From an uncultured virus (IMG/VR IMGVR_UViG_3300022833_000006) (Duplodnaviria; Heunggongvirae; Uroviricota; Caudoviricetes; Crassvirales): a stretch of DNA of 34,750 nucleotides. The stretch is from IMG/VR virus record IMGVR_UViG_3300022833_000006. One strand, 5' to 3'. The notes under the pieces were generated by a model. It was not told the DNA's origin. It saw nothing but the letters and a program-made list of their open reading frames with translations, and ran no database searches. Positions 1 through 23,556 of this stretch are shown piece after piece (the first letter of the stretch is position 1; every line of letters starts with the position of its first letter). A program made the translations under genes and the position numbers.

Positions 1-599
1 TTCATAGAATTCATCCACGCATCCGTGACCGTGACTCCAAATTGAAGATTCTGAATTGGATTTCCTTCGTCACCAATTCTAAGGAACTCCATTATGTCTT
101 CATGCTCTACTGGTAGGTATAAAGCACAAGCTCCTCTTCTTGATTCACCTTGTTTACATTTATCTATAATTGTATCATAGATTTTTGCATAGTGAACAGG
201 TCCATCCGCATTCCCACCACCTGAGATTGACGAACCGCGTTTTCTAATGTTACCTAAGTACATGGATGTTCCACCACCGTATTTAGACATCATACCTATT
301 TCTCTTGCTCCATTTAGAATACTATCCATCGTATCATCAATGTCAGATCCGTAACAACTTATAGGTAAAGTTTTTTCATATCCAAAATTACACCATACAG
401 GAGTTGACAAACTATAATAACCTAAAGCCATATAGTTTTCAAATTTTTCAGCTCAGCCTTTTACTCCTAGTATTCTTTCTGCGTGATTTGCTATGTCTTT
501 AATTCTTTGCTCTGGAGATACCCCTTCTCTTAAGTATCCACGAGAAAGAAATTTTCTTGACTCTTCGTTAAGCCAATAATATCTATCTGTTTTATTCAT
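1..599 (-). CDS. nrdA: Ribonucleotide reductase class Ia alpha subunit, 5' part (runs off window); one in-frame TGA read as Trp
   Basis: Manual translation from ATG 599: MNKTDRYYWLNEESRKFLSRGYL...GVKG*AEKFENYMALGYYSLSTPVW...PISCYG...KYGGGTS...KQGESRRGACALYLPVEHEDIMEFL. TGA at 455-453 (codon 49). Lies directly downstream of nrdB. Confidence 0.93.
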
Positions 600-652
600 T
601 TAATTTTTATATAACATTAATGACTATATTAACATAACCATTAATAGTTTTG

Positions 653-1627
653 TTAGAACAAGTCGTCCTCTGTTATACTTTCTGATTTTTTGTTATAATC
701 AATACTTTTTTTATAAAAGAAATCACTTTCTTTGGTTGATTTAATTTCAACGTCAAACCACATTGTACTTTCTAACTTTTGAGTTTGGACCTCAAAAGCT
801 TTACTCATTCCAATGCTTTCTAAACTGTTATTAAACCTGTTTTTAATAAATTCAGTAATTGTTTCCTTTGATAAGAAATCTAGTTCACCTTTTTCAAAAA
901 TCCAATCCAAAACTTTACACTCGGCTTCAAGAGCCTTAACGCATGCAGATTTAATTATTTCTTCAAATTCTTTATCAAACCATTCAGGGTTTTCTTTTTT
1001 AATAATATTAATTAATTCAATACCAAAATTACCATGTACATCTTCTTCCTTGCTGGTTGCTTCTACTATATTTGACACTCCTTTAAATAAATTTAATTCT
1101 TTATTAAATGACATCATTATCAGAAACTGGCTAAATAAAGAAACGTGTTCTATAAATAGACTAAATAAAAGGATAGATTTTGTATACATCTTATCACTTT
1201 TACTTCTAGTTCCATCAAGGTATTTACTAAGATAAGAAATCCTATCTTTAATAGCTGGTACATCGGTAATTGTTTCAAATTCACTTTCTAAGCCAAGAAC
1301 TTCAAGTAAGTGTTTATAAGCATCAAAGTGCCTAGCTTCACTCTCACTAAATGTAGCTCCTACTGATTGAATTTCATATTTTGGTAGACGTTTATACAGA
1401 TCACCCCAAAACGCTTTCACGTTAACTTCTATCTGAGCAATTGCAAGCATGGATCGCTTGATTGCTTCACGTTGACTGTCTGTAACTTTAGTCATAAAAT
1501 CAGAAATGTCTTCTGTAATATTAAACTCAGTATGAATTCAGTATGAATGCCTTATTGCATTTTTATATTTAAGTAATTCGGGATACTCATAAGGTAACAC
1601 GTTTTTTCTTTTTTTAAATATATTCAT
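653..1627 (-). CDS. nrdB: Ribonucleotide reductase class Ia beta subunit; true start 1627, one in-frame TGA=Trp
   Basis: Diiron motifs EARH and EEDVH; C-terminal DFFY. Upstream extension MNIFKKRKNVLPYEYPELLKYKNAIRHSY*IHTEF places TGA (1540-1538) on the conserved W of the NrdB W-x-x-x-E motif. ATG overlaps the previous stop (TAATG). Confidence 0.95.
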
Positions 1628-1839
1628 TAAATTAGATTTTTAATAAAGTTATTTCTTCTTGTTACTGCTTCTTGTAGAGTTTTTCCTATACCTACATAAA
1701 AGCTTGTTGCTTTAGAATTATCTTTTACATTGACTCTAATTTCAAAATTACCAGTGTTTGTTCTTTTAGTAATTCCTTTAAATCCAGTGTTTGTTTTAAT
1801 TTTATTCATTTTTCTATCTTTTACCGTTTTGTTAAGCAT
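1627..1839 (-). CDS. Small AP2-like DNA-binding domain protein
   Basis: NTGFKGITK...FEIRV...YVG...TLQEAV..RN resembles the AP2 domain of phage HNH-AP2 endonucleases; no HNH motif present. Confidence 0.55.
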   Translation of the reverse strand: MLNKTVKDRKMNKIKTNTGFKGITKRTNTGNFEIRVNVKDNSKATSFYVGIGKTLQEAVTRRNNFIKNLI

Positions 1840-2134
1840 CTTTTACAAATACTCCATTTTGCATTTTACCAGTTCTTTTACTTATAATATTATAAGCACC
1901 TTCAAGGCAATCTGTTAAATTTACATTTTGTAATTCTGCTTGTAAAATGATTGTTACCAAAATATCACCAAGGGCGTCATTGATTTCTTCTTTATCATTT
2001 TTGTTTATTGCATCAAGAAGTTCATTAACTTCCTCTAATGTTTTGATAGCCTGAGCCATAGGTGTTGCTTTTTCAAGAATACCTTTGTCTGCTCCTCATT
2101 TTACTACTAACGGTTGTAATTTACTATATTCCAT
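1832..2134 (-). CDS. MazG-like nucleotide pyrophosphohydrolase; true start 2134, one in-frame TGA=Trp
   Basis: EEVNEL...DALGDILVT...AYNIISKRTGKM motifs. Extension MEYSKLQPLVVK*GADKGIL places TGA (2098-2096) at the W typical of the W-A-x-D-K/R-G motif in this phage family. Confidence 0.9.
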
Positions 2135-2162
2135 ATCTTTATTAGAATTAAGTTTTTGTTTT

Positions 2163-2738
2163 TTAGAATATATCAGAAATATTTTCTAAATTTATTTGTT
2201 TATTGTTTTGAAACTCATAAGTTTCATTGTTAATATTTAACAATTGACCAAGTTCACTATTTTTAGATAATTTGACATTTAAATCTTTTTCCATTTTTTC
2301 TCTTAACTTGTCATTTTTGTTAAATATATCATCAAATCTTTTAATAGTTGAATTTACAAAACCTGGTATTTTACCATATAATTCTATTCAGTATTTCTTA
2401 ATTTGCATTTTGTAATCATCTGAAAGTTTAGAATAATTACCTTTTATCAATTTAAGTATATCTTCATGATATTCTTCTGGTATTTTATATTCATAAATAA
2501 CATTAGCATTAACAGAATAAGATTTTACATATACATCATTGTCAGTAAGTATATTTTCTTTTTCTGTAAATTTAACATCTCTGTAATTAAAATTACATTC
2601 AATATAAAACTTACCTATTTTAGAATCTAAATTAGAAAATAAATAAGTGTTTATTATATGAGATTGTATATTTGAATTTATATCAACTCATTGTGTTATT
2701 ATAGGTAAAACATAACCATGACTAATATTTTTTTTCAT
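2163..2738 (-). CDS. Hypothetical protein, 191 aa, visible only with TGA=Trp
   Basis: Fills the apparent gap between MazG and the nuclease. ATG 2738, TAA 2165-2163, in-frame TGA at 2690-2688 and 2390-2388 (MKKNISHGYVLPIITQ*V...IPEEYHEDILKLIKGNYSKLSDDYKMQIKKY*IELY). Confidence 0.85.
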
Positions 2739-2739
2739 A

Positions 2740-4083: not shown

Positions 4084-4461
4084 TTAATATACTTTTAAAT
4101 AAAAACCAGGTTTTTCTTTATTATACCCAGTGTATTTTCCTTTAATTTTAAAAGGAAAGGGAACCATTTCTGTAATGTTGTCATCATCTATCCATCCAGC
4201 ATGAGTCATCTCATCTTGAATTGTTTGAATAGGATTTACCCAATCATATTTATGATGAGTACCTCTTATGAAATGTACCCCTATTTTATAAGGTTTTTCT
4301 TTACCTTCTATCATCTGGTGGAAAGCATCTTTATTATCTTTCCACCATTCTGCAGTGTTTGTTTTTCATTTTTTAGTAGCTTTAGAAGCTATAAAATGTC
4401 TACCAGTTCATCTGCGTCCATTTTTACTTGATGGCACTGAGCCATCGCAAAATAACATCAT
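4084..4461 (-). CDS. Putative RusA-like Holliday junction resolvase; true start 4461, two in-frame TGA=Trp
   Basis: MMLFCDGSVPSSKNGRR*TGRHFIASKATKK*KTN...YDWVNPIQTIQDEMTHAGWIDDDN; D-x-x-N...D...DD pattern of RusA. TGA at 4410-4408 and 4368-4366. Confidence 0.75.
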
Positions 4462-4473: not shown

Positions 4474-4614
4474 TTATTTTTGTTTAGTTAGAAATATTTT
4501 CATAGTTCTATTATTATCTTGTAATTGTATTTCATCAATACTACAATTCATATTTACATAACTTCTACCATTATGATCTATTATTTCTACTCTAGTTACT
4601 TTTGTTGTTTTCAT
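4474..4614 (-). CDS. Small hypothetical phage protein (46 aa)
   Basis: MKTTKVTRVEIIDHNGRSYV...LQDNNRTMKIFLTKQK; fills the gap in operon orientation. Confidence 0.65.
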   Translation of the reverse strand: MKTTKVTRVEIIDHNGRSYVNMNCSIDEIQLQDNNRTMKIFLTKQK

Positions 4615-4945
4615 TATACCATTTAATAAATTTAATTACTGCTTTATACATTGTTTTAATATCTGTATAAATAAATTTACATATAACTCTATCCAATTGT
4701 TTATTGAAATCCTTATCTTTATCTAGTGTATCTAACCTTTCAATTTTTTGAATTATAGGCATTAACCAATCCCATGATTCATGAAATTTAAAATCATCTA
4801 GTCTAGCTTTATTTGTTTCATACATGTTACTATCTACAGCTAAATAAGGTCTATTGTGAGGAGTAGTATAAACTAATCCTTTTTTTTCCCAACCCATAAA
4901 TTCAGCAATTAACTTATTACCATTTAATACAAAATTCTTTTCCAT
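4592..4945 (-). CDS. Hypothetical phage protein (NKLIAEFMG...SWDWLMP type)
   Basis: ORF track; overlaps neighbours in operon fashion. Confidence 0.75.
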   Translation of the reverse strand: MEKNFVLNGNKLIAEFMGWEKKGLVYTTPHNRPYLAVDSNMYETNKARLDDFKFHESWDWLMPIIQKIERLDTLDKDKDFNKQLDRVICKFIYTDIKTMYKAVIKFIKWYNENNKSN

Positions 4946-5621
4946 TGTTTTCTTTTATTAATTCGTTAATTTGTTTAAAATGATTACAATTCCATTCTTC
5001 ATTTCGTTTTGCAGCAAGTTCAGGATGTATACATTTTAAAGCATAACAAAATTTTAATTTGTTTTCTGGAACAACTTTGTGAAAAGTTCTCATAACATCG
5101 TTTCCCCATAAACAAAATATTACACCTGGATTATTATCTATAATAGTATTAATAGTAACTTTAATAAATTCATCCCAAATATGCTTGTGTGGATTTACCA
5201 TACCTGCTTGAATAGTTAATGATGTATTTAACAATAAAACATTTTGTAAAGCCCAATTTTGCAAAGTTACATCAAAATCAACAATTAAAGTATTAGTAGT
5301 TTTTTCTATACATTCTCTTATTTTAAATAAAGAAGGTGACACCCTAAGTGTATCAACTGTATTTGCTACAGCAAAGCCGTTTGCTGATTCATTAGGGTAA
5401 GGAGAATCTCCTAATATCACCACTTTAATATTATTATAAGGGACATATCTAAAAACTTTAAATATATCTTTTTTTAAAGGAAATATTTGTCTTTTATTAT
5501 AAACTTGGTTTAAAAAAACAATAAGTTTTCTAAAATAATCTGATTTAATTATATATAGAAAACTTTCATCATTAACCCAGTTACCAAAAGTTTTTTTAAA
5601 ATTAATAATATCCTTATTCAT
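4917..5621 (-). CDS. ung: Uracil-DNA glycosylase family 1-like protein (variant active-site motif)
   Basis: KVVILGDSPYP, PSL, WALQNVLLLNTSLT, LWG, HP, CNHF motifs. Confidence 0.85.
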   Translation of the reverse strand: MNKDIINFKKTFGNWVNDESFLYIIKSDYFRKLIVFLNQVYNKRQIFPLKKDIFKVFRYVPYNNIKVVILGDSPYPNESANGFAVANTVDTLRVSPSLFKIRECIEKTTNTLIVDFDVTLQNWALQNVLLLNTSLTIQAGMVNPHKHIWDEFIKVTINTIIDNNPGVIFCLWGNDVMRTFHKVVPENKLKFCYALKCIHPELAAKRNEEWNCNHFKQINELIKENNGKEFCIKW

Positions 5622-7128
5622 CTACAGTATTTGTAAAATCATCATAAAATTTATGTTCATTAAGACCTTTAGGGTCATTAATATTCATTTTTTTCATAAC
5701 TTTAACTCTTTCTTTAAAATATTTTATATTATTTTCACAAAGAGAATCTGTAAGTTCTGGGAATTCACTTTTAGTAAGTTTTACTAATGTTTCATATTTA
5801 CTATTTAATTTACTAAAAGATTTTAAAAATTTAGGATTATTAAATTTATCTTCTAATTTGTTAGCTGCCATAACCATTATTGCTGAACTTAACATAAAAT
5901 TGTAAATTTTAAAAAAGTCAAAAGTATTATTATGTTGTCTAAATTCTACAGTTTGTTTGTTAGTAAATATAATAGGAATCATGTTAAACCATACGTAACG
6001 ACTTCTAATGTTCCATTTAGATGTACCATTAGGGTCTTTAGGATGATTTTGTATTTTTTCTAAATCATTACCAAAATCTGAAAATGAATATCCACCAGAT
6101 AAATGCTTAAATAAACTATCAAAAGCTAATTTTTTAAGTTTAGGTAAAGGTTTATCTGTGTCAGACATCATAATACTTAAAGGAGTACAATTCATTGGAC
6201 CACTGTAATTTTTATTTTTACCGTAATCAGTAGAAATTTTTTTAGACAATGGTTGTAAAGAATACATATCTTCTTCTAGCATATTTGCTATATTATTTAT
6301 AGATAAAATATTGTCAACATCTCTTTTAAGACCTCCTAAATGTAAATGTAAAGCACATGTAAAATCATAATCAGTTCTTTTTTTTAATAATTTACATATT
6401 TCCATTACATTATATAAACCTTTTCTACCATCTAAAGGAACTGTAACATATTCTAAACCTGATATACTACCATCTCTTAATGCTACTATACCGTGTTTAT
6501 AACACAATCTATCAGGTAAATAACCTTTTGAAGTTTCAAATTCAAGACCAAAAGTTATTTTATTTTTTTCTAATAAAATACCTAATTCTTCTACCATTTG
6601 ATTTTTAACACTAGGAACTTTGTAATACTGATTATATGATTTTTCAATCATTTTAGTTACAAATCTACTATCGTAGTTTAACGAATTTTTATCTACAGGT
6701 GCTTTTCCTATTTTATTAAAAGAAGATTTTGACATTTCATCTTTTTTATAAAAATTACCTGTATTTAAATGTTCAGAATACTTACTACCTAATGTTTCTT
6801 CATCTATACAATTAGTTACATTAAAATTGTCTACAACAACTTTTATGTTTTTAGTAGGATTAGGTGAAAAAAATCCTAATATAAAAGAATCATCTTTATT
6901 TATACTTACTATACCCCTTGTTAAAAGTTGTTTATTTACTAAAACGTAAGATTTATTTTCATGATCAAATTCAATAAGACCATTATTAAATCTATGATAT
7001 CTACCGTTTACTTTGTAACATCCACCACTTCCTTCTATGTTGTTATCACCTATTTCGTAATAATCATTTTGTATTTTACGACATTTACTTTTTTCTAAAT
7101 TCTTACCTTTGTAAGTTTTAACTATCAT
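5614..7128 (-). CDS. Putative amidoligase (COOH-NH2 ligase fold)
   Basis: TFGLEFET, DGSI..LEYVT.PL, CALHLHLG, RY.WFN, TVEFRQH motifs. Confidence 0.85.
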   Translation of the reverse strand: MIVKTYKGKNLEKSKCRKIQNDYYEIGDNNIEGSGGCYKVNGRYHRFNNGLIEFDHENKSYVLVNKQLLTRGIVSINKDDSFILGFFSPNPTKNIKVVVDNFNVTNCIDEETLGSKYSEHLNTGNFYKKDEMSKSSFNKIGKAPVDKNSLNYDSRFVTKMIEKSYNQYYKVPSVKNQMVEELGILLEKNKITFGLEFETSKGYLPDRLCYKHGIVALRDGSISGLEYVTVPLDGRKGLYNVMEICKLLKKRTDYDFTCALHLHLGGLKRDVDNILSINNIANMLEEDMYSLQPLSKKISTDYGKNKNYSGPMNCTPLSIMMSDTDKPLPKLKKLAFDSLFKHLSGGYSFSDFGNDLEKIQNHPKDPNGTSKWNIRSRYVWFNMIPIIFTNKQTVEFRQHNNTFDFFKIYNFMLSSAIMVMAANKLEDKFNNPKFLKSFSKLNSKYETLVKLTKSEFPELTDSLCENNIKYFKERVKVMKKMNINDPKGLNEHKFYDDFTNTVDE

Positions 7129-7154
7129 TTCATTTTATTTTTTTAATGTTAACT

Positions 7155-9275
7155 CTATTGGTTAAATTTGTTGTTTCTATTAATAAATTCCATTTCATCT
7201 TCATCAAAATATTCATCATCATCATTTTTTATTTCTTTTGAATTTAAAATATTATCAATCCATTTACTTAACGGATTATAAACACCTTCTAAATTTTCGC
7301 AAAAATTAAAAACATTAGTTGCTAATTCATTGTTATCAGAATATTTACTAACAAAATCTATTCCTAAATCTAAAGATTCTTTTATTGAAGTGTTAAAATC
7401 ATCTAATGCAACTTTCATGTCGTCATTTTCGTCTTCAAATTCGTCAACATTTGAATAATCTATACCTGATTCATAATCTTGAAAATCTTCTTCAAATTTA
7501 TTATTTTTATTAACAAGTTTATTTATATTTTTTTCAAAACTTTTGTCTTCAAAATAAGCATTGTCAATAACTTTTTTATTACTTAAAATTATTTTATTAT
7601 TTTTTATACTATTAAAAATATGATTATAAAAACTAGCAACACAAATACCTTTTCTTATACTATAAATATAAGTAGAACCTATTGCTTGTACAGATTCACT
7701 TTGTACTACTTTTCCTTTTCTTAAAATTTTATTTTTAAATAAATGAGCATTAAATTCTAATAAATCTTCTTTTTTATTTTTTAAAAATGAATTTTCATAA
7801 TAAGAAGTTATAGGATAAACACTCATGTGCGAATATTCTTCAAGAGTAAAGTTTTCTGATCCTTTATAATTAATAGTTTCATAATCTAATTCAGTAAGTA
7901 ACATAATACCATTAACTATGTAAAACAAAGTTAAATCAACTTTTCCTAAAACAATATTTTTAGAATTAACTTTATCAAAAAATGAAAAATTATTAATTAA
8001 ATTTTTAGCTTCATGTATTAAATTACTAACATATATAAAACCATTATTTTCACTATAAACATAAATACCATCTTTAACAAGCTCGTTGTTTTGTTTATAT
8101 CTAAAATTTTCAAAAATAACTTTATTATAATTAACCATTTCTTTGCTCCTAATTATTTTCTCATAAAAAATACTTTTTCCAATTTTACTTTCTAAAGGTG
8201 AAATAACATTTTGAATATCATTTGGTATTTTATTTGCACTAATAAATAATTTAGAATTAACAGGTGGTTGTTTTGATTTATAAACAACTAAATTTTTTAC
8301 TGATTTATTGTTATTTTTAGTTTTATCAACATTTTTTCTGTTTTTTTCTTCTTTTTTACGATTAAATTCATACATTGAATCGTATTTTTCATTTTTAGTT
8401 CTATCAATATTAAACAAAGCTTCAATTACACCATTTTTTATTTTATAAAGTATATTTGTTTCAAAAGTATATATATTAGAATCTTTTTCAGTATGTCTTT
8501 TACCTGATATAAGCTCTAAAGGAGCTACTGTAGAAGAATAATATATACTATTTTTAGATTCTTGCCAATAATGCAATGGTCTTTCTTCTTCAGCAACACT
8601 AGTATTATATTCCCATTTTTTAGATTTACCTCTAAATACAAAAACAGTTTCTTTTTCTTTTTGTGAATGTAAAACCAATGCAGCAGCACCTTTGTAATCT
8701 TGTAAAACTTTTATATAATCAGGTTTTTTTACATTAGCTTTAGATATTATTTCTAATAAAATTTCACTATCTACTTTTTCTCTATGTTTATCATCTTTAA
8801 GATTTACTTCATATTTTTCAGCTAAAAATTTGTGATTATCTAAAGTTCCGTTATGAGCACCTATAAAATTAAAACCATCACCAATATCAAACATAAAAGG
8901 ATGTGTATTATTTACACTTTTAATACCTCCTCTTGATGCATTTCTAGTGTGACCTATAATTACGTTACCTACTTTTTTTTTGTACTTTTGGATACTTTCA
9001 TTAATAAATAAATTTCTAAATAAAGCTTCATTGTTTGTACCAATACTGTCACCTTTATGTAATTTTTCATTTATATATAAACCACAAGAATTAGTACCTC
9101 TTTCTTCATTTAAAACACCTAATATTTTAAGTTTATCCATATCAAATGAAGATGGATTTTCACCAGTCCATCCAAATAATCCACAACTAAAAACATCTTT
9201 TTTTTGTGTTTTACTAAAAATGTTTAATAGCATTTGCATAATTAACATTATAATTACTATATTAAATATTAACAT
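7155..9275 (-). CDS. Class II glutamine amidotransferase (Ntn hydrolase) with leader and long C-terminal region
   Basis: CGLFG, RG.NSCG, IGHTRNAS, NTHPF, AHNGTL, VDSE, ERPL motifs. Confidence 0.88.
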   Translation of the reverse strand: MLIFNIVIIMLIMQMLLNIFSKTQKKDVFSCGLFGWTGENPSSFDMDKLKILGVLNEERGTNSCGLYINEKLHKGDSIGTNNEALFRNLFINESIQKYKKKVGNVIIGHTRNASRGGIKSVNNTHPFMFDIGDGFNFIGAHNGTLDNHKFLAEKYEVNLKDDKHREKVDSEILLEIISKANVKKPDYIKVLQDYKGAAALVLHSQKEKETVFVFRGKSKKWEYNTSVAEEERPLHYWQESKNSIYYSSTVAPLELISGKRHTEKDSNIYTFETNILYKIKNGVIEALFNIDRTKNEKYDSMYEFNRKKEEKNRKNVDKTKNNNKSVKNLVVYKSKQPPVNSKLFISANKIPNDIQNVISPLESKIGKSIFYEKIIRSKEMVNYNKVIFENFRYKQNNELVKDGIYVYSENNGFIYVSNLIHEAKNLINNFSFFDKVNSKNIVLGKVDLTLFYIVNGIMLLTELDYETINYKGSENFTLEEYSHMSVYPITSYYENSFLKNKKEDLLEFNAHLFKNKILRKGKVVQSESVQAIGSTYIYSIRKGICVASFYNHIFNSIKNNKIILSNKKVIDNAYFEDKSFEKNINKLVNKNNKFEEDFQDYESGIDYSNVDEFEDENDDMKVALDDFNTSIKESLDLGIDFVSKYSDNNELATNVFNFCENLEGVYNPLSKWIDNILNSKEIKNDDDEYFDEDEMEFINRNNKFNQ

Positions 9276-10089
9276 ATTCTTTTATTTTGTATTTTTCAAT
9301 TAATTCATTTACGTTTTCAATTTCTAAATCTGATTCAGGATTAATATAATTTAATATATCTTTTCTTAAATCTTCATTAGAAATTTCAAGTTCTTCTGCC
9401 ATTTTGACAGCCATAACGGAACGATCCCATACGTTTAATATACTATCATCACTTTTTAAAAAGTAACCACCTAAAGACCTACATTCTATTCCGTAATCTT
9501 TATCTCTACAATCCCCGATTTTACCATATAATGATCTGCGATTATGATCATCATTATCTTCTAATATTAAAGGTAATGATACAGCTAATTCAAACATCAT
9601 ACATAATCTATCTCTTTCATCTTCTGTTGGGTTGTCCCACCCATAATGAATGTGAAAACCAGAAGATCTCATAGTTAATTCTGATGTGTCTTCTTCTGCA
9701 ATATCTGAAGAACATTCAGTTATTGCGTTATAAGAAGGTGAACATCCAAAAACATGAGCTTTAGGATCAAGAAGTAATTCTTCAGTAGCAATTTCACTAC
9801 TTGAATAATGAAGTTCCATACCTAAAGGTGCTACAAACATTTCAATGTAAGATTTAGCATAATTTATTGAATTTAAAAATTCTTCTCTTGTTTTACAAGG
9901 TGGAATATTAAATTCAGCAAGTATATTATCTTCTTGAACAAAACAACCTGTTCCTATATCAAGAGGATCGTTTTTACCTGCATTAAAAACTCCAATAATA
10001 GAAGCTAATTCTTTAGTTTCAAAATCTCTAACAAATACTTCTGGATCAGATCCAATAGTAAGATTATTGTAATTATATTTATTATTCAT
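9262..10089 (-). CDS. phiEco32-like COOH-NH2 ligase type 2
   Basis: TIGSDPEVF, QEDNILAEFNIPP, FGCSPSYNA, RSSGFHIHYG, RRSLYGK.G..R.K.YGIECRSL. Confidence 0.9.
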   Translation of the reverse strand: MNNKYNYNNLTIGSDPEVFVRDFETKELASIIGVFNAGKNDPLDIGTGCFVQEDNILAEFNIPPCKTREEFLNSINYAKSYIEMFVAPLGMELHYSSSEIATEELLLDPKAHVFGCSPSYNAITECSSDIAEEDTSELTMRSSGFHIHYGWDNPTEDERDRLCMMFELAVSLPLILEDNDDHNRRSLYGKIGDCRDKDYGIECRSLGGYFLKSDDSILNVWDRSVMAVKMAEELEISNEDLRKDILNYINPESDLEIENVNELIEKYKIKEYVNI

Positions 10090-10090
10090 A

Positions 10091-11489: not shown

Positions 11490-11491
11490 TT

Positions 11492-13194: not shown

Positions 13195-14224
13195 CTTTTT
13201 TATTTATTTTAGAATTTAATATTTCTTTTGCTAAATCTTTACCATGATTATTAACTAAATCAGAAAAATCCTTAGATTTATATTCTTTATTTATTACTAT
13301 ATTAGTAATCATATGATTTCTAGATATTTCTTTGGCGTTTATTTGACCCCAGTTTTCTTTTTTATCATAATCATTATCAAATAATATAAAAATTTTAGTA
13401 AATCTACCTTTTAATTGTTCAATTATATTATCTTTTGGTTTAGCTTTTTCATTTTGTAAAGCTATTGCATCATAACCTGTTGTACTTTTTATAGACATTA
13501 CATCTTTAAGTGATTTTGTTATGATTAAAATGTTACCATTTAAAGAAAGTTGTTCCCAACCTTGCCATACTGAATTATCATTGTCTGTTATCCATTTAAA
13601 TTTACTATAAGGTTGATATATCTTATGTGTTATTAAACCATCTTTACTTTCTATATAAACATATGCATTTTTATCTGCTGCTATAGGTTTATTATTTATA
13701 AAAATATATTTTAATGGAAAAACTCTGTATTTTATTAACATAACTTTATTTATGTTAAATTTATTCCAATAATTTAAATCGTGAACTTCCCAAATTCTTT
13801 TGTTTACTGATATTTTACATTTCTTTTTTTTAAGTATTTGTATGTTAGCGTCATACTTTACTTTATTTTTATTTTCATTGTTTAATAAATTATTACTACA
13901 TTTGTACTTTTTATCTAAATTAAAATCAATTGCAATTTGACTGTAAACATCATACCATTGTGAATATGCAAAAAATTCTTTTACGAATTTATAACAATCA
14001 CCACCTCCATTTACAAAATCATTATATATAATATTACCTCTTTTATTTAAAAAAAAACCAAACGATGGTGTTGGATCTTCTCTTAGAGGTGAACTCATAG
14101 CTGAATTTAAGTTAATACTATCAGTATTCATGTAAAAACAATATATTTCACTGTCTTTTAATTCTATATCTAATACCGCTTTAGTTACTAATGGTTTAGA
14201 TACGTGTTTATTTAAATCTACCAT
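13187..14224 (-). CDS. dnaG: DNA primase (TOPRIM, crAss-like type)
   Basis: SPLREDPTPSF N-terminal region, KIYQP, ITKSLKDVM, FDND, KDFSD. Confidence 0.85.
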   Translation of the reverse strand: MVDLNKHVSKPLVTKAVLDIELKDSEIYCFYMNTDSINLNSAMSSPLREDPTPSFGFFLNKRGNIIYNDFVNGGGDCYKFVKEFFAYSQWYDVYSQIAIDFNLDKKYKCSNNLLNNENKNKVKYDANIQILKKKKCKISVNKRIWEVHDLNYWNKFNINKVMLIKYRVFPLKYIFINNKPIAADKNAYVYIESKDGLITHKIYQPYSKFKWITDNDNSVWQGWEQLSLNGNILIITKSLKDVMSIKSTTGYDAIALQNEKAKPKDNIIEQLKGRFTKIFILFDNDYDKKENWGQINAKEISRNHMITNIVINKEYKSKDFSDLVNNHGKDLAKEILNSKINKKDE

Positions 14225-14237
14225 TTTTGTTTTTAAT

Positions 14238-14260
14238 AAAAAAGAGGGGTTTCCCCCTCT
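14238..14260 (-). terminator. Rho-independent terminator after the SSB-like gene
   Basis: Minus strand AGAGGGG-GAAA-CCCCTCT followed by a T run. Confidence 0.88.
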
Positions 14261-14274
14261 ATATTTATGACCTA

Positions 14275-14886
14275 CTAGAAAAAATCATTACTAGCTTCGT
14301 CTTTAGAGTCAGTAGACTCTGTGTCAAAAGCATCGTCATCATTATCTGGCTGAGGTCTAGACATTAAGTCATTATACATTAACTTATTTGCGTCTGTGCT
14401 TTTAGCTGGTTTTAATCTAGTTGTATTTTCATCTTTGTTAAAAGGTTCTACAAAATTAATTTTTCTAACAGTTAAAAAACTCTTAGGATAACCTTGTGTT
14501 CCATAATTAACAAATACATTTACTTTATGTCCTTTTTTACCTGCTTCGTTAATTTTCTTCATTAGAAAATCTACAGCTGCTGGGTAATTAGGAAGAGTTG
14601 GTAAAGCTACACCTATAGATTCTGCATCTACAGCGTGTAACGTTGTAACAAGCCTTTGTAATACAAAAGCTGGGTTGTTATCTGAATCTTGAGGGTAATA
14701 AATACCATCGTTTACATCAGAACCATTTTCTTGTGTGTAATGTATTTTATAATCAGGTGCATTGGCATTGTCTTCTGCACTTTTTTTCTTAACAGAAATT
14801 GCTACATTATTTACTTTACCTGCATTACCTTCGTTAAAAATTACTACATCAGAACCATTGTCTGAAAAACTATTTAAATCAATCAT
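14275..14886 (-). CDS. Putative single-stranded DNA-binding protein
   Basis: Acidic tail ending NDFF; position between Sak4-like ATPase and primase. Confidence 0.6.
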   Translation of the reverse strand: MIDLNSFSDNGSDVVIFNEGNAGKVNNVAISVKKKSAEDNANAPDYKIHYTQENGSDVNDGIYYPQDSDNNPAFVLQRLVTTLHAVDAESIGVALPTLPNYPAAVDFLMKKINEAGKKGHKVNVFVNYGTQGYPKSFLTVRKINFVEPFNKDENTTRLKPAKSTDANKLMYNDLMSRPQPDNDDDAFDTESTDSKDEASNDFF

Positions 14887-14904
14887 TATTTTTATATATA
14901 TAAA

Positions 14905-14927
14905 TTAAGTTGACATTGTTGACTTAT
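14905..14927 (-). promoter_or_regulatory. 23-nt repeated leader motif, copy 1
   Basis: Plus strand TTAAGTTGACATTGTTGACTTAT; 22/23 identical to 15636-15658 and at nearly the same distance from the ATG. Confidence 0.65.
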
Positions 14928-14943
14928 ACATACAAACTAATAA

Positions 14944-15618
14944 TTACTCATAATAGTCTCTAATTACTTTATTTACTTCTACAAGATCATTTTCAACATG
15001 TTCTTCTTGAAACATATCCATTGGTGTCTTGCAAGTATCTGTAGCATCGTTTTGTGTTCTAAACAAATATCTAGCTGGTTTTCCTGGCTCTTTTTTTACA
15101 TCTGTAAATAACACCATACTACTAAAGCTTTCAGGGCTTAATTTAGCTAATTGCTTACCTTGAACTGCAATTCTTTGATTTAAGGTTCCCATATCATCAT
15201 ATATTTTTTCTGGATGACAAAAAAAATAAACAATAATGTCGTCACGCATGGTATCATTAACAAAATTAATCAATTTGTATTGATTTCTTGCCATGTTAGC
15301 CCATGCTTGCATACCATTCTTAGCATTGTTAAATTCATTGCTCATGACAGAATCTGTCATAATACGAGACCATGTATCTACAATTACAGTTTTAATGCTT
15401 TCATTAGCGTTAGCTTCAGAAAGTGATTTAACCACATCTTTTATATTACTAGACTGCATATAATTTCCTTTTTCTTGATTATAAACGTCTTTGTACTTTC
15501 TAAAAGGTAGTGCTTTTTGATCCGTATTAATGATTACGGTTTCATCAGGATTTAATTTCCTGAGACTTGTTGATTTACCAGTACCTGATTCACCAACTAT
15601 AAATACTAAATGTGCCAT
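14944..15618 (-). CDS. AAA_24 / Sak4-like P-loop ATPase (recombination)
   Basis: Walker A GESGTGKSTS, KALPF, Walker B VIVD, TCKTPMDMF, ENDL. Confidence 0.85.
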   Translation of the reverse strand: MAHLVFIVGESGTGKSTSLRKLNPDETVIINTDQKALPFRKYKDVYNQEKGNYMQSSNIKDVVKSLSEANANESIKTVIVDTWSRIMTDSVMSNEFNNAKNGMQAWANMARNQYKLINFVNDTMRDDIIVYFFCHPEKIYDDMGTLNQRIAVQGKQLAKLSPESFSSMVLFTDVKKEPGKPARYLFRTQNDATDTCKTPMDMFQEEHVENDLVEVNKVIRDYYE

Positions 15619-15635
15619 ATATTTAAATTAATAAG

Positions 15636-15658
15636 TTAAGTTGACACTGTTGACTTAT
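15636..15658 (-). promoter_or_regulatory. 23-nt repeated leader motif, copy 2
   Basis: Plus strand TTAAGTTGACACTGTTGACTTAT upstream of the ATPase ATG. Confidence 0.65.
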
Positions 15659-15662
15659 TTAA

Positions 15663-15797
15663 TTAAATAGTTCTAAATCTACGTTTAGCATTCCAAAATA
15701 CTCTTTTACTGTTTCCAACAATAGAATATTTACTTACTTTTTCATTTAAAGTATCTCTTACAGTGTTTAATTGACTGCTATTTTTATTTTGATTCAT
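15663..15797 (-). CDS. Small hypothetical protein (44 aa)
   Basis: MNQNKNSSQLNTVRDTLNEKVSKYSIVGNSKRVFWNAKRRFRTI; manual translation only. Confidence 0.45.
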   Translation of the reverse strand: MNQNKNSSQLNTVRDTLNEKVSKYSIVGNSKRVFWNAKRRFRTI

Positions 15798-15815
15798 TAT
15801 TCTAAAATTAATTTA

Positions 15816-15823
15816 CAAATATA
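15816..15823 (-). promoter_or_regulatory. Possible Bacteroidota -7 promoter element
   Basis: Minus strand TATATTTG matches TAnnTTTG; no clear TTG at -33. Confidence 0.35.
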
Positions 15824-15914
15824 AAAAGAAACTGTTAAAGATGTTAAAAACATTATAATAAGAATACTACTTAAAAGTATAATTTCTAAAAATGTTAATC
15901 TATTTTTTTTCATA

Positions 15915-16994
15915 TTATTTGTTATAAGCTAGCATTTCTGCTTTTATAGATGGGTATGATTCGTAATCTAATAACATAAGATCTTTAATTTCTATATTAT
16001 TATTATTAATATATTTTAATCCATCTATTAATTCAGCTTGTGCTTTAGTACTAATAGTTAAATCACAATTATTATATTTATTAACATCTCTAGATAACTG
16101 TTCTTTAACAGCATCTATATGTGCTTCATAAATATGTACATTAGACAAATCTCCAATAATACCTTTAGGTATCATATTAGTCATTTTACCAATTAGCTTT
16201 GCTAATAATGCATAACTTGCAATATTAAAAGGTAAACCTAAGAATGTATCAACTGAACGTTGATGCCATTTTAAAGTAAATTGGTATTTAGGTGTATCTA
16301 AAGAATTATAATATTCCATATCTAATTCTTTACTACATTTGCCATTTTTAATAGCTTTTACATTTAATTTTTGTTTAATATGATCAGAAGGTTTAACTAA
16401 ACCAGTTCTTTCAAACCAATTTAAAGGTTCAACTAATATTTCAAAACTCCAATGACAAGGTGGTAAAGCCATATCATCTAACTCAGCAGGATTCCAAGCT
16501 GTAACTATGTGCTTTGTACCCATAGGTGTTTCTTTTAATCCTTTTATAAGATTGGATATTTGATCTAAACCTCCTGGATTATTATCTGAAATAAACCAAT
16601 TTCTCCATTGAGCACCATATACTCTACCTAAATCTAAATTCCAACTGTCTGGGTTTTTAAATATTTCTTTAATAGTTGGAGTTTCCCCTTCAGATATAGA
16701 ATAATTTTTAATTAACCAGTTATAAGCATCTTTATTCCAAATATTAATACCATTATCTACAAGATATTTAATATTAGTATCACCACGTAAAAACCATAAT
16801 AATTCTCCAACAACTCCTTTCCAATATAACTTTTTAGTAGTTATTGCGGGAAAACCATCATCAAAATTGTGTACCAACGTGTAACTTGGTATCTGATACC
16901 TAAATACATTCTTGCGATTAGGATCTTCATATCTGAAACCTTCATTTCTTATTTTTTGCAATAATTTGTGATATTCAATATCTATTTTTGCCAT
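15915..16994 (-). CDS. thyA: Thymidylate synthase
   Basis: FPAITTKK, ELLWFLRG, LGRVYGAQWR, AWNP, LPPCH, QRSVDTFLGLPFNIASY, HIY. Confidence 0.97.
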   Translation of the reverse strand: MAKIDIEYHKLLQKIRNEGFRYEDPNRKNVFRYQIPSYTLVHNFDDGFPAITTKKLYWKGVVGELLWFLRGDTNIKYLVDNGINIWNKDAYNWLIKNYSISEGETPTIKEIFKNPDSWNLDLGRVYGAQWRNWFISDNNPGGLDQISNLIKGLKETPMGTKHIVTAWNPAELDDMALPPCHWSFEILVEPLNWFERTGLVKPSDHIKQKLNVKAIKNGKCSKELDMEYYNSLDTPKYQFTLKWHQRSVDTFLGLPFNIASYALLAKLIGKMTNMIPKGIIGDLSNVHIYEAHIDAVKEQLSRDVNKYNNCDLTISTKAQAELIDGLKYINNNNIEIKDLMLLDYESYPSIKAEMLAYNK

Positions 16995-17000
16995 TTGTTT

Positions 17001-17393
17001 TTATTTTAATAATTCTTCTAGTTTTTCAAGTTCAACTTTCATTCCTTGACATATTTCATAACTTTCTTTTTCAGAATAATGTCTAATTTGTCTTTTTAAA
17101 TAATTTACTCTTGATAATATATTCATATCACCAACAATCATTTTTTTTCTTTCATTAAAAACACTTGAAGCAACTGTTACTTGTTCTTTGTAATTAAGAC
17201 TACCATCAAAAGCACTGTATTCTCTAGTTATTATAGTAACTGGAATGTCGTCGTCATCATTTTCTGTAATAGTATGTCTTATACTACCTTTTTCAAGTAT
17301 ATTATCATTATTTTGAAAAAAACTTTCAGTTGTTTTTTCATTTTCAATACTAGTTGTATTAAACACTTTTCCTAATAATTCTTTTGTAAACAT
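17001..17393 (-). CDS. Hypothetical protein with UVR (UvrB/C)-like C-terminal motif
   Basis: LKRQIRHYSEKESYEICQGMKVELEKL resembles the UVR coiled-coil. Confidence 0.55.
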   Translation of the reverse strand: MFTKELLGKVFNTTSIENEKTTESFFQNNDNILEKGSIRHTITENDDDDIPVTIITREYSAFDGSLNYKEQVTVASSVFNERKKMIVGDMNILSRVNYLKRQIRHYSEKESYEICQGMKVELEKLEELLK

Positions 17394-17458: not shown

Positions 17459-18589
17459 TTATTCTCTAATTTTGTTAAGCATATTATATACTGATTTTAT
17501 TCCTTTTTCATCATTAGTTAAAGGTAATTCTTTAAAAAAATCAACTGCACCATCAAAATACAAAGGGCAAACAGTGTTACCACCACCATCTCTACATGCT
17601 AAAATTTCTAAAAATCTTATATTGTCTTTGAATTTTTCAATGTTATAGCCGTCTTTTTCAGGATATTTTCTTATACCATGTCTGTAAGGACTAAATAAAC
17701 CTAATGCTAAATCTACATCTCTACTAGTTAACTTATTATCAGCTATATCTACTAAACTAGGTTTTAACCTGTTAGCTTTCATATTATCAAGAGATTCTGA
17801 AGCTGCGGATTGTTGCTGCACAATAACTGGACTATAATTATATCTATTTCTAAGTTGTATAAAATATTTAGAAGAAAGATCTGATATTTCTTGATGTAAA
17901 GTACTACCTTTTTTTGGATATAAAAGAGATATGTGATCAACTATTATAATAACATACTCGTCAGGTCTATCTGCTTTGTAATAATCAAATACTTCATGAT
18001 CTTTAGATTCACCTGTTTTATTATCTTTAAAAGTAACTGTTTTATAATAAGTAGTACCATTAGCCTTAGCGTAATCATCCATATACCTCATTATACCGTA
18101 AGCATGTTTAATGTTGTCTATAAATGTTACAGTTTTATTAAAAAATTCAAAATATTCATTTTGTTTTTCTATTTCTAACAGTATTTCTTCACTAACAGCA
18201 CCACGAGTAGATTGTAATTTAACAGGATCTATTCTTATATTACCTTTTGATGTAGTAAAAAGCCTATTACAAGCAGCCTGTGTCATTTTTTGACGTTCAG
18301 ACATTTCTAATGTAAAATACACTATTTTTAATGTAATAGGACTTTCAGGATTTTGTAACTTTCATTTAATAGGATTATACATATACAAATTATCTGTAAC
18401 TTTTGTTTTACCAACTTTAGTACTAGCTGTAACAAGAGTCATTTTACCTTGTTGTATACCAGGAACCACTTCTTCAAAACGAGGTAGTCCAAAGGGTATA
18501 CAATTTGCTTTTCCAGATATTATATTTTCTCTTCTATTTCATAAATGTTTTTTTAATCTACCATAATTGTCTAATTCTTCTTTTTGCAT
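17459..18589 (-). CDS. dnaB: Replicative DnaB-like helicase; true start 18589, two in-frame TGA=Trp
   Basis: Extension MQKEELDNYGRLKKHL*NRRENIISGKANCIPFGLPRF...TASTKVGKT...NPIK*KLQ supplies Walker A; YFTLEMS, IIVDHISLL, VQQQ follow. TGA at 18541-18539 and 18364-18362. Confidence 0.92.
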
Positions 18590-19321: not shown

Positions 19322-19325
19322 TTTT

Positions 19326-20168: not shown

Positions 20169-20174
20169 TTTATG

Positions 20175-20348: not shown

Positions 20349-20358
20349 TTTTTTGTAA

Positions 20359-20946
20359 TTATTTTAATTCTGTTGTCCAATCTGAATTTTCTGGTTCTTT
20401 TTTAGATTGCTCTACCCATATTTCCAAATTAGAAGTTTCTTCTCCTTTGTAATTCTGTTTGTATATAAAATAATCTGCTCTTTGTATGAATTTAAAATTA
20501 CCATTGAAATTTTCAATATACATTTCAGTTGCATTTATTAATTCATCAAAAGTTACGTCTGGATTTGAATCCATAAACCTTTGTAATTTTTTTCTAGTAG
20601 AAAGACCTGAACCCATTGAACCAACTTTTATATCTTTAAATAAAGATCTATATGTTTTTAATTGATTATCTAATTCTTCTTCTTTTCTACTATCTTCTTT
20701 TATTTTGACAAATACTTTAATAACTTTCTTACCTTTATCTCTAAGATACAATCCTTTTGAATCAGATATTAAATACTGTTTTTCAATAAGGTCATTAATG
20801 TAAGCTTTGTTCATGTCATAATCAAAATAAATTTTATTTGAGCTTAAATATATTTTTATAATACACATTAATTGATTAATATTTATATCAAGTAACTTAA
20901 TGTCTTTAAAATTAAATGATAAATTTTCTATATCTCATAATTTCAT
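20359..20946 (-). CDS. Hypothetical replication-module protein (possible initiator/loader); probable start 20946 with TGA=Trp at codon 4
   Basis: In-frame extension MKL*DIENLSFNFKDIKLLDININQL to the track ORF; TGA at 20937-20935. Function inferred from position only. Confidence 0.65.
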
Positions 20947-20975
20947 TTTAATATTTTCATTAATTTTGTTTAGAT

Positions 20976-21128
20976 TTAATAATCCATATCTGTTTTGTCT
21001 ATAAACAAATTGTTATCTATTAAACCTTCATCATCACAAATATTACAATTAATATGTACAAAACCACCTTTGTTAGCTTTTTCTTTCATATATTGTTTTT
21101 CTCCTAAGCATATATTACATAGTTCCAT
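20976..21128 (-). CDS. Small zinc-finger protein (50 aa)
   Basis: MELCNICLGEK...INCNICDDEG; two CxxC motifs. Confidence 0.7.
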   Translation of the reverse strand: MELCNICLGEKQYMKEKANKGGFVHINCNICDDEGLIDNNLFIDKTDMDY

Positions 21129-21612
21129 AATTGTTTTTTTTTATGAATTTTTTAAATCCGTTTGTTGTGTGGTAAGTTTTGTCAGCTTTACCTGCTTTAA
21201 AAGTTTCCATTAAAATTTTAGTATTAACGTCTAGCATAGAGTTAAGAGAAGATTTAGCACCTTCTCTTATAAATCTTTGTTTATAAGTTTCATCATAAGT
21301 GTTTCTAATGTGAACATGATATTGTTTACCAATATTATATCCAATAGGTAATTCTAAAACAGATATTATTTCAAAATCTTTTTTAAGTTTTTCTACTAAT
21401 GATTTTTGATTAACATGAGCCATTAAAACTCTCATTGATTTTTCTGTTTTTAATACAGTATCAACAAGGTTTTTTAAATCTCTACTTGCACAATTTAAAT
21501 TTTCTAATGTTCCAAATTTACAATTATCTGTAGATTTATTTAAAGTCAAAAATTGACCTTTATTATTTGAAAATTTTATGTTTTGTTTATTTATATTTAC
21601 TGATTTAATCAT
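21115..21612 (-). CDS. Hypothetical protein
   Basis: ORF track, 165 aa. Confidence 0.7.
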   Translation of the reverse strand: MIKSVNINKQNIKFSNNKGQFLTLNKSTDNCKFGTLENLNCASRDLKNLVDTVLKTEKSMRVLMAHVNQKSLVEKLKKDFEIISVLELPIGYNIGKQYHVHIRNTYDETYKQRFIREGAKSSLNSMLDVNTKILMETFKAGKADKTYHTTNGFKKFIKKNNYGTM

Positions 21613-21627
21613 TTTTTTTTATTATTT

Positions 21628-23556
21628 TTAATTTTTAATTACGTTAATAATTTTATTAACTTCTCTTAAATAATAGTTATAATCTATATTATAATTATCA
21701 TTGTTGTAATACTGATTAAAAACTGTTGTTTTATAACCAGCTTCAATACTTGATTCTCTATCACCCATATCTATCTCACCAAATATGTTTATTTGTAATG
21801 TAGGTATTTTATCAGGCAATGGTGGTAACTTTTTAACAAGCATTTCACCATCGTTAGAAACGAAATATCTAGTTACCTTACCTAATTCATGATCTTCTGG
21901 CTCATAGTCTTTTACAATCCTTTCAACGAGTTTATTATCACCTGTCATCTTTACACCTAAGCAAAAATCGTGAATACCGTAGTTTTCACAAAAAGTATAA
22001 TTCTCTGATGTTGAATGATTTGACAAATGATTATAAATAGTATCTTCAGGACTAACATTGTTTGCAAAATAATTAGCTAAAGCAATAGCTACAATTCTTT
22101 TACTATGATTTTTGTTATAATCCCTATCCATTTCAAAAGCACCTTTGTATTTAGTATAACCTGTATCAGTAATACTCATGTAATTATTAACATCTCGTAT
22201 TATCATTTTGTCATAAACAGCATATTCCATTACAAGATTAGTTTTATTTTCCCAGGATGTAACTATCTTTTTCATGTAATCTACATCAGTTCTCTTTATA
22301 ATAAAAGTAAAACCGTCAGTGTTTGATTGCAAAAATGTAATATCATTAACATGTTTAAATATTTTCTCCATAAGCATAGCTAAAAGTAATTGACCATTAA
22401 GAGTAATACTTAACAGACATTTGGGATCATACAAAAAACTATACATATCATTCATTTTACCAAATGAACCATTGAGCATTAATTTACAAGCTGCATTACG
22501 TGGATCTGATTTAGGAAATGTCTTTCTTAATTCATATATACTTTTATAAATTTTACTAAAAGCTTCTCCTAAGTGTTTTGGTCTAAATTCATTGTTAATA
22601 GCTAAGTTAGGATAGTAACTTGCTACGTCAATGTCTATGATTACATGAGTTTTATCACTTACATACACTCCAGGTTTAGTACAACCATGTATACCACCTT
22701 GACCAAAATCATTAATAATGTTACCTATCTTACCACTAAATTTAAATTCACCTTTAGTATCTTTTGATACATATGATTTAAAATTAAAAAGAACTTTTTG
22801 CATTTCTTTTGAATCAAACTTAATATAGTCAAGTATTATATCATTAAATATAACTGATTTTCTATAAGTTCTTTTCTCTGATAATTCTTTCTTTTTAATA
22901 TTCATTTCTTTAGATAATAAATCTAAGAATATTTCACTACCAATTTTAGGGTCATTAGCATTTATTAAATTTAAACCATATTCCTCAGATAACTGAAGCC
23001 TTAGCTCAATTTCTTTTTGACATTTGTTATAAAATAAATGTGTAGCATTTACATCATGGTCACAATAAGATATTATTTCAGACATCATGTCTTTTGTAAG
23101 ATCACTGTCTGGTGGATAAGGAAGATCACGTATATTATCCATTCTCATGGCATATTCAAGCCATTTAAGAGACGTTCTACGTGCTTTGTTATCGTAATGT
23201 TTAATCCTAAAAAGATCTACTTGAGATATCTTAACTTGATTATCCCATATTGCAGAATAATCAGCTTGTATTACATTTTGTGCTTCATTGTATATCTCTT
23301 CAGATGTTCATTTTCTTTTAACTTTAAGTATAGTGTTATGTAAGACTGGGTAGTCAAAATTAACATTATTATAACCTATTAAAGTCATGTTTCTTTGATT
23401 AAGAAACTCGTAAAGTTTTACTATGTCTGTTTTGTATTTGTTAATTTCAAATCTTCAAAACTCATTAGTTTCTATATTCTTAAACACAGCAAGAAATAAA
23501 TCTTTATATGTTTCTAAATCGTATATGTAAGTTTTGTTACTTCATTGTTTTTTCAT
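21628..23556 (-). CDS. polB: Family B DNA polymerase; true start 23556 (642 aa), three in-frame TGA=Trp
   Basis: Extension holds Exo I YDLET and Exo II GYNNVNFD; then YCDHDV, DVASYYPN, KLMLNGSFGK, NTDG. TGA at 23544-23542, 23457-23455 and 23310-23308. Confidence 0.95.

Follow-up and report, generated by a model that had tools for sequence, protein, structure and literature searches.

The window analyzed here, a 34,750-nucleotide stretch of an uncultured crAss-like phage (IMG/VR record IMGVR_UViG_3300022833_000006), carries on its minus strand a replication module in which eight genes contain in-frame TGA codons, and comparative sequence evidence indicates that these TGAs are sense codons meaning tryptophan. 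They crowd toward the 5' ends of their genes, are followed almost always by a purine and never by T, and are confined to one module of the genome. The recoding of TGA to tryptophan is known from other phages; what is new here is a version of it that is restricted to replication-type genes and placed at their 5' ends. Comparison among related genomes shows where the codons lie, that they mean tryptophan, that the next base is constrained and that the codons are restricted to the module. From these patterns we infer that decoding competes with release factor 2 (RF2), that a gradient in the cost of failure is what positions the codons, and that the outcome would be a throttle on replication functions. 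The reading that we favor is that UGA is read as tryptophan against RF2 and has been kept only where failure aborts translation early and cheaply, and we consider its chances of being correct to be about even.

The window is AT-rich, with about 25% GC, and nearly all of its genes lie on the minus strand. The best named match of its DNA polymerase is that of Cellulophaga phage phi14:2 (Crassvirales; Steigviridae), with 46% identity over 95% of the length. Membership of the Crassvirales is supported by this polymerase kinship and by the crAss virion proteins of a relative, G002, a complete genome of 100,482 nt with terminal repeats and a polymerase 76% identical to that of the window; G002 encodes proteins matching Pfam CrAss_Ring_3_4 and crAss_AuxCP, and its portal, terminase and major head proteins match crAss-type PHROGs. 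A second record, G001 (66.7 kb; 66% complete), is 99.996% identical to the window over positions 1-28449. The genomes and contigs compared fall into four lineages: A, consisting of the window and G001; B, with contigs L003, L040 and L119; C, with G002 and L005; and D, represented by L120. Polymerases of the related lineages share 76-80% identity with that of the window. The outgroup, G003, is the closest syntenic genome with the standard code (101.6 kb), and the small subunit of its ribonucleotide reductase (RNR beta) is 78% identical. A further lineage, P0005, with 66% polymerase identity, was sought in viral contigs as a fifth lineage, and only standard-code relatives were found. DNA runs that match the window are labeled as salt lake metagenome, and Tara Oceans scaffolds are among the related contigs.

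When open reading frames (ORFs) are called on the minus strand of the window with genetic code 4, eight genes contain 13 TGAs in frame, all of them at verified coordinates. A preliminary description of this DNA had placed them at exactly these positions, and had stated that 15 of the 16 TGG codons in the same genes lie 3' of the last TGA and that tryptophan-rich neighbors have none; a new count bears this out, the single exceptional TGG being codon 9 of the RNR large subunit (RNR alpha), and ThyA has 11 TGG codons and no TGA, which is likewise absent from the primase, UDG and the ligase cluster. An exact within-gene rank test restricted to the window (8 genes, 13 TGA, 16 TGG) gives P=3.3e-4. 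Among the minus-strand genes between positions 453 and 24181, the first 50 codons hold 10 of 13 TGA codons versus 8 of 69 TGG codons (Fisher p=4e-6). A within-gene permutation test had been proposed as a check on front-loading; run on the genome and a relative, it gives p=1.9e-4 for lineage A and p=3.1e-4 for lineage C, and the distribution is not uniform. Front-loading as a real pattern of sense codons therefore holds, recurring in the relatives and in the full genome.

The tryptophan meaning is seen in the outgroup, where TGG occupies 13 of the 26 sites at which members of the clade have TGA, including codons 18 and 32 of the RusA-like resolvase, codon 13 of MazG, codon 30 of RNR beta, codon 83 of the polymerase and helicase codons 15, 94 and 213. 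Within the clade, TGA and TGG replace each other between lineages at one and the same column in three cases (codon 117 of a 191-aa protein, helicase codon 213 and polymerase codon 7). Among 80 loci homologous to RNR beta, the column of codon 30 is TGG in 71 matches and TGA in three clade members only, and six loci gave no motif match. The sequence 5' of the first TGA changes as coding sequence does: relative to lineage C, most of the changes in codons 1-29 of RNR beta are synonymous (14 identical codons, 12 synonymous and 3 nonsynonymous). Alignments of the polymerase with full-length homologues begin at about residue 17, and the Pfam match of RNR alpha begins at residue 10. Code-11 gene calls for five close relatives of the polymerase (66-100% identity) all begin at Met146, past the last TGA; the database entries for relatives with no more than 51% identity are full length.

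Longest-ORF calling with TGA as a sense codon extends ORFs in the 5' direction, and in standard-code phages it yields false 5' TGAs. The pattern might then be an artefact of annotation, in which the true starts lie 3' of the TGAs and the supposed codons belong to upstream noncoding DNA, and two of the 13 window sites have no outside homology. The same ORF calling indeed produces many such cases in standard-code relatives: distant relatives have apparent 5' TGAs in 11 ORFs, seven of which have a family match, and in those with multiple TGAs homology starts after the TGAs. We reject these as further instances of recoding and regard them as ORF-extension artefacts, since homology begins downstream of the TGAs. 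The outgroup, called in the same manner, has a 5' TGA in no ortholog family; in those families its TGAs are C-terminal and true stops. Its early TGAs are few and belong to small orphan ORFs that either start with TTG or GTG or lie on the wrong strand. In the window, 11 of the 13 sites lie within outgroup-aligned columns or a Pfam match. Codon 17 of the DnaB-like helicase and codon 4 of a 195-aa protein have no outside homologue and are therefore supported by within-clade conservation only. The artefact explanation is already largely refuted, and the probability that it accounts for the pattern is close to negligible.

A second way to dispense with a tryptophan meaning would be for the TGAs to be true stops of short leader ORFs, with the enzymes starting downstream in an N-terminally shortened form. 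Bacteria can rescue early nonsense codons by re-initiation, every TGA is early, and long code-11 ORFs lie downstream. However, protein-level conservation extends to the segments 5' of the TGAs, which contain domain cores, such as the Pfam match of RNR beta from residue 7 and the N-terminus of the polymerase, and in codons 1-29 of RNR beta synonymous changes exceed nonsynonymous ones (12 versus 3). The next in-frame methionine is far downstream, at Met146 in the polymerase, and under re-initiation the residue aligned with a TGA would not have to be tryptophan. We regard re-initiation as very unlikely.

Across the four lineages, the homology-supported genes contain 26 distinct TGA sites, 17 of them no more than 50 codons from the start and 23 no more than 100. 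Fourteen sites are common to more than one lineage, and every one of these is at or before codon 94; the 12 lineage-specific and hence younger sites include the only three beyond codon 100 (codons 117 and 213 in lineage A and codon 106 in lineage D). Further TGAs in other lineages fall on the first tryptophan codons of their genes, at ThyA codon 58 in lineage D and, for lineage C, in a homing endonuclease as well as in a gene of 337 aa. In the TGA-bearing families, the share of TGA among purine-followed tryptophan codons is 22/27 (81%) in codons 1-25, 8/12 in codons 26-50 and 12/26 (46%) in codons 51-100, and it falls to 2/28 in codons 101-200 and 1/24 (4%) beyond codon 200. Front-loading of TGA is not a general property of AT-rich gene starts or a codon ramp, because no shift toward the 5' end is seen in other codon pairs ending in A or G: the A-ending share of the Lys, Glu, Gln, Leu and Arg codons is 0.907 in codons 1-50 versus 0.912 in the rest for lineage A (p=0.75) and 0.794 versus 0.821 for lineage C (p=0.16). 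The neutral A-ending share is thus 80-91%. In the TGA genes the first 25 codons are the one zone where TGA attains this level; elsewhere it is kept near or at zero. Use of TGA in the first 25 codons equals the neutral share, as would be expected of tolerance under AT pressure; the codon is thus tolerated at these starts, and there is selection against it in all other places. The preliminary description had proposed that TGA is placed so as to abort translation early; early abort fits the steep fall-off by codon position, and selection for TGA over mere tolerance is unsupported.

The base that follows TGA is constrained. After the 49 sense TGAs it is A in 35 cases, G in 13, C in one and T in none, versus A 173, G 112, T 122 and C 44 after TGG, where T thus accounts for 27%; the avoidance of T after TGA is significant (p=7e-7). 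Early tryptophan codons that have stayed TGG often precede a pyrimidine, as at RNR alpha codon 9 (TGG followed by CTT) and RusA codon 39 (TGG followed by TGG), and in lineage D at Sak4 codon 83 and ThyA codon 67. In Escherichia coli, U after UGA favors termination and a purine favors suppression. The rule of a purine at the +4 position therefore points to a competing release factor, since such a rule would be unexpected without one.

These results also bear on the possibility that the host natively reads UGA as tryptophan (code 4, no RF2), with the 5' bias as a rare-codon ramp or a product of AT-rich starts. Such a host would be consistent with the failure to find a phage suppressor and with the near absence of TGA as a stop, and yet it is highly improbable. 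TGA makes up 15% of the tryptophan codons of the module (17/114) and 0% of those in late genes, versus a neutral A-ending share of 80-91%; T is avoided after TGA (0/49, versus 27% for TGG), the other A/G-ending pairs show no 5' shift, and the closest syntenic relative stops at TGA. Editing of the mRNA before translation, for example an A-to-I change of UGA to UGI that is read as UGG, would give tryptophan without any suppressor tRNA, and editing enzymes typically follow a sequence-context rule. No deaminase domain was found in G002, however, and editing would leave the distance-from-start gradient unexplained, so that we give it very little credence.

The TGA genes form two blocks, one from the polymerase to DnaB and the other from RusA to an SF2 helicase just past the left edge of the window. 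In lineage D alone the polymerase block is stretched to ThyA and Sak4, with TGA at ThyA codon 58 and Sak4 codon 106. In all lineages TGA is missing from the intervening block, which extends from a 203-aa gene and the primase by way of the ligase cluster as far as UDG, and in the replication-module families without TGA none of 93 purine-context tryptophan codons is TGA. Late virion genes are also free of TGA: there is none in 32 in-family genes of G002, which contain 114 TGG codons, and none in 10 such genes of G001, with 56 TGG codons; the late-gene TGG codons include 15 within the first 50 codons. As a stop codon, TGA is used in no middle or late gene, and there are one to three doubtful cases among the early ORFs, one or two in each genome; in the comparison genomes it ends 8 of 116 genes in the outgroup and 4 of 32 in a stretch of phi14:2. 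The early ORFs that perhaps end in a true TGA are at 28446..28628 (minus strand) in the window and at 70973..71296 and 71773..72087 (minus strand) in G002, and in these a second stop follows a few codons on. If these early stops are real, one genome would be using TGA as a stop in early genes and as tryptophan in replication genes.

What reads UGA was sought in the phage genomes themselves. ARAGORN, run on the window and on the loci of lineages A-D, found no suppressor tRNA and only a transfer-messenger RNA (tmRNA); at relaxed thresholds it produced noise only (33 to about 290 "genes"). The tRNA model RF00005 has no match in G002 and two sub-threshold matches in G001, and a permissive Rfam scan of all 100 kb of G002 returned a single tRNA-like gene, which contains a 76-nt insert and lacks a conserved UCA. 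These scans can detect tRNAs in this group, because outgroups yield ordinary tRNAs (Met and Arg in one, Thr and Arg in another). Searches of the G002 proteins against PHROGs (107 proteins) and Pfam (69 proteins), with four border-spanning ORFs left out, revealed neither a release factor nor a Trp-tRNA synthetase, and no enzyme of tRNA modification or deaminase either. The preliminary description had supposed a suppressor that becomes available during infection, and none turned up in G002, whether a canonical tRNA, a release factor or a Trp-tRNA synthetase. UGA may be read by the tRNA-Trp of the host or by a tRNA of unconventional type, or a factor made by the phage may weaken RF2. Readthrough of UGA in E. 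coli tracks metabolic state, according to the accessible part of one report (PMC10570021).

The tRNA-like RNA is found in all four lineages, at 25078..25238 (minus strand) in the window, 6293..6452 in L119, 2540..2698 in L120 and 68082..68225 (minus strand) in G002. It has acceptor, D and T arms, an insert of about 76 nt in place of the anticodon loop, and a position about 180 nt downstream of the tmRNA gene. Across the four lineages its acceptor stem covaries, and compensatory changes occur in 9 of 26 predicted pairs. A model built on this RNA matches the clade and one distant relative only; the outgroup is without it and has tRNA-Met and tRNA-Arg instead. We do not claim it as a split or otherwise odd suppressor, as neither a UCA nor a CCA anticodon conserved in the four lineages could be reconstructed, and it is at most a candidate. 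A similar tRNA-like element adjoins a tRNA-Arg(TCT) in the distant relative L142 (15346..15460).

The tmRNA gene itself is at 25409..25855 (minus strand) in the window, where it scores 58.1 bits with Rfam and encodes the tag ATVKLAMAA. Its score is 53.8 bits in lineage B and 55.8 in lineage D, and the outgroup has a weak match of 24.5 bits. Lineage C has lost the T-arm but retains the 5' end and the region of the tag. A requirement of the tmRNA for the reading of UGA was considered and rejected, because lineage C keeps the TGA pattern with the T-arm deleted and the outgroup has a weak match.

We present the following scenario for the origin of the pattern. The UGA codons would have arisen in one small crAss-like clade, either from TGG or at variable N-terminal sites. 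Their decoding would compete with host RF2, so that reading is incomplete, and UGA would persist only where a miss is cheap and harmless, because a failed reading ends the protein at that point. The zone of tolerance would consist of the first 100 or so codons, with a purine (never U) as the next base, in two blocks of genes for replication, recombination and nucleotide metabolism. From the remainder of the TGA genes, the neighboring block, the late virion genes and stop usage, UGA would have been purged. The yield of the polymerase, two helicases, RNR, RusA and MazG may consequently be limited by UGA suppression, amounting to a translational throttle on replication functions. Ambiguous decoding of this kind, with UGA kept in genes able to afford a reduced yield, is the best supported of the readings.

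Several observations weigh against this scenario. The counts behind the gradient are site-by-lineage counts with partly common ancestry, and the number of distinct sites is about 26. Position and context leave the gene-wide absence of TGA from other replication-module families unexplained, for in those families none of 20 early purine-context tryptophan codons is TGA, and the block-wise split could reflect temporal classes. Eight TGAs are at columns with Lys, Tyr, Leu or Phe in the outgroup or sister lineages, and either this non-tryptophan origin or the conservation of 14 sites across lineages could reflect selection for TGA itself. Finally, the loss to incomplete readthrough is equal wherever in a gene the TGA sits, and near-neutral use at the 5' end therefore needs suppression that is fairly efficient; no source of efficient suppression was found, as searches of G002 revealed no tRNA(UCA), release factor or Trp-tRNA synthetase.

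Some of these observations are what would be predicted if the 5' TGAs were selected to block the polymerase, helicase, RNR and resolvase until suppression arises, thereby delaying replication or holding a carrier state, as the preliminary description had it. The two contiguous TGA blocks separated by a TGA-free block resemble temporal classes, and the presence of two or three TGAs in several genes (polymerase, helicases) would make for a tight lock. New TGAs at columns that were not ancestrally tryptophan, and the one to three early ORFs that may retain a TGA stop, are also in keeping with such a timing gate, and recoding has been proposed as a timer, though for late genes, in the accessible text of one study (bioRxiv 10.1101/2021.08.26.457843). 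Contrary to expectation for a gate, searches of the complete genome G002 revealed no suppressor tRNA, no release factor and no Trp-tRNA synthetase, and total avoidance of TGA in late genes would be unexpected if an efficient suppressor were active from mid-infection. Use of TGA at the 5' end is no higher than the neutral A-ending share, and the strict +4 rule suggests persistent RF2 competition rather than an open gate. A timing gate is thus possible and rather unlikely. Because late genes lack TGA, the context constraint is lasting and use of TGA is only neutral, a standing throttle or a tolerated leak appears preferable to a switch.

A bolder form of the idea is that UGA is read as tryptophan without a suppressor tRNA of known type, efficiently only in the first 100 or so codons, and that this would be a checkpoint tying synthesis of the replication machinery to the termination and decoding state of the host. 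The reader could be the tRNA-Trp of the host, a factor with which the phage blunts RF2, or the tRNA-like RNA specific to the clade. We consider the checkpoint to be improbable; if it were true, it would add a new layer to the control of translation by phages and would represent a genetic code caught in the middle of a change.

The clade has much in common with known code-4 phages, and differs from them in layout. Recoded phages that include crAss-like members of the same order also have TGA at tryptophan positions (Yutin et al. 2021, PMC7886860; Borges 10.1101/2021.08.26.457843), and the parts of these sources available to us describe depletion of TGA stops, block-wise use and some genomes without a detectable suppressor tRNA, as in the clade of the window. 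In those phages recoding is found mainly in late, structural and lysis genes, whereas replication genes mostly keep the standard code, again as far as the available text of the sources goes; in the clade of the window the arrangement is reversed, with recoding in replication-type genes only and none in late genes. A suppressor tRNA(UCA) is present in 35% of code-4 genomes according to the portion of the Borges study that we could access (10.1101/2021.08.26.457843), and is thus frequent without being universal. In the accessible parts of the literature, with 10.1101/2021.08.26.457843, PMC10746230 and PMC7886860 among the sources, we met no within-gene position bias, no +4 purine rule and no replication-only layout. 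Phage recoding has been pictured as a late-gene device dependent on a phage suppressor tRNA, and this clade displays the reverse layout.

Codon reassignment is theorized to pass through an ambiguous-intermediate stage. As in that stage, the codon discussed here would be read in two ways, is avoided as a stop and in demanding genes, and accumulates where errors would cost least; in the literature searched, no documented example of an ambiguous intermediate with a measured position gradient was found. The crAss example of an "incipient code change" in PMC7886860 starts, in the available text of that paper, with the gain of a suppressor tRNA and with TAG codons in TerL, unlike the window phage. 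Classical UGA readthrough resembles our favored reading in that the insertion of tryptophan needs no UCA anticodon, is contested by RF2 and depends on context, and host physiology can alter such readthrough, according to the part of PMC10570021 accessible to us. In the classical cases, however, one stop is read through where the ORF ends and the protein is extended at its C-terminus, whereas an essential gene of the window phage has as many as three UGAs inside it, close to the start. The two quantitative rules, distance from the start and identity of the next base, would reveal the cost of an ambiguous codon by location and thereby bear on the evolution of the code. Compact reporters for testing the rules could be made from codons 1-100 of the polymerase or RNR genes. 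Because code-11 callers truncate the TGA genes and code-4 callers would over-extend others, annotation of such genomes needs position-aware handling.

The individual genes of the module, all on the minus strand, are described here from the left edge of the window. RNR alpha (3..599; Pfam Ribonuc_red_lgN/lgC) runs off the window, which holds its N-terminal part, with the sense TGA at codon 49 (453..455) in a column that is Phe in the outgroup; the full gene in G001 encodes 544 aa with one TGA and 11 TGG codons. RNR beta (653..1627; Pfam Ribonuc_red_sm over residues 7-281) has its TGA at codon 30 (1538..1540), and the MazG-like pyrophosphatase (1832..2134; Pfam MazG) at codon 13 (2096..2098), the aligned outgroup column being TGG for both. 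The 191-aa protein (2163..2738), a code-4 ORF to which no function is assigned, contains TGA at codon 17 (2688..2690), where the outgroup has Leu, and at codon 117 (2388..2390), where lineages B and C and the outgroup have TGG. The RusA-like resolvase (4084..4461), with a weak, below-cut-off Pfam RusA match over residues 16-102 (E 0.0017), has TGA at codons 18 (4408..4410) and 32 (4366..4368), both TGG in the outgroup. From 4592 to 17393 (4592..17393) extends the TGA-free stretch, in which all tryptophans of UDG, the cluster of amidoligase, glutamine amidotransferase (GATase) and COOH-NH2 ligase genes, GGACT, the primase, a Sak4-like ATPase and ThyA are encoded by TGG.

Beyond this stretch, the DnaB-like helicase (17459..18589; Pfam DnaB_C over residues 31-109) has TGA at codon 17 (18539..18541) and codon 76 (18362..18364). 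Codon 17 lies within an N-terminal extension of about 70 aa that is found in lineages A and B only, in part matches Pfam DnaB_C, and is lacking in lineages C and D and the outgroup; codon 76 is aligned with Tyr in lineages C and D and the outgroup. The 195-aa protein (20359..20946), a code-4 ORF with a weak winged-helix match, has TGA at codon 4 (20935..20937), which is kept in all four lineages and has no aligned outgroup residue; codons 5-26 of this gene are conserved as protein across lineages. The DNA polymerase (21628..23583) is of the PHROG 1252 type with a PolB-type exonuclease signature in Pfam, and its N-terminus presumably contains a DxE-type exonuclease motif. Its TGAs (23542..23544, 23455..23457 and 23308..23310) are codons 14, 43 and 92 counted from a TTG start, or 5, 34 and 83 from the probable ATG start at 23556, and they are aligned in the outgroup with Lys, Tyr and TGG, respectively.

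The ligase cluster at 5614..13194 (minus strand) of the window is made up of an amidoligase, two class-I and one class-II glutamine amidotransferases, a phiEco32-type COOH-NH2 ligase, a RimK-like ATP-grasp protein and a gamma-glutamyl cyclotransferase. The cluster is wholly TGA-free, and phi14:2 and the outgroup have it too; we presume that it may serve the modification of peptides or proteins, or of DNA bases. ThyA is intact in the window (359 aa, 15915..16994) but is split in two by a homing-endonuclease ORF in lineage C (G002, 55479..57855, minus strand) and is also split in lineage B (L003, 7678..9187), and the phi14:2 polymerase is likewise annotated as two pieces with an ORF between them. 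In the early region, three lineages have a motif resembling the self-cleaving twister-P1 ribozyme, at 27898..27947 (minus strand) in the window, 2986..3037 in L119 and 72525..72578 (minus strand) in G002, with scores of 43-49 bits, under the Rfam gathering score of 67.

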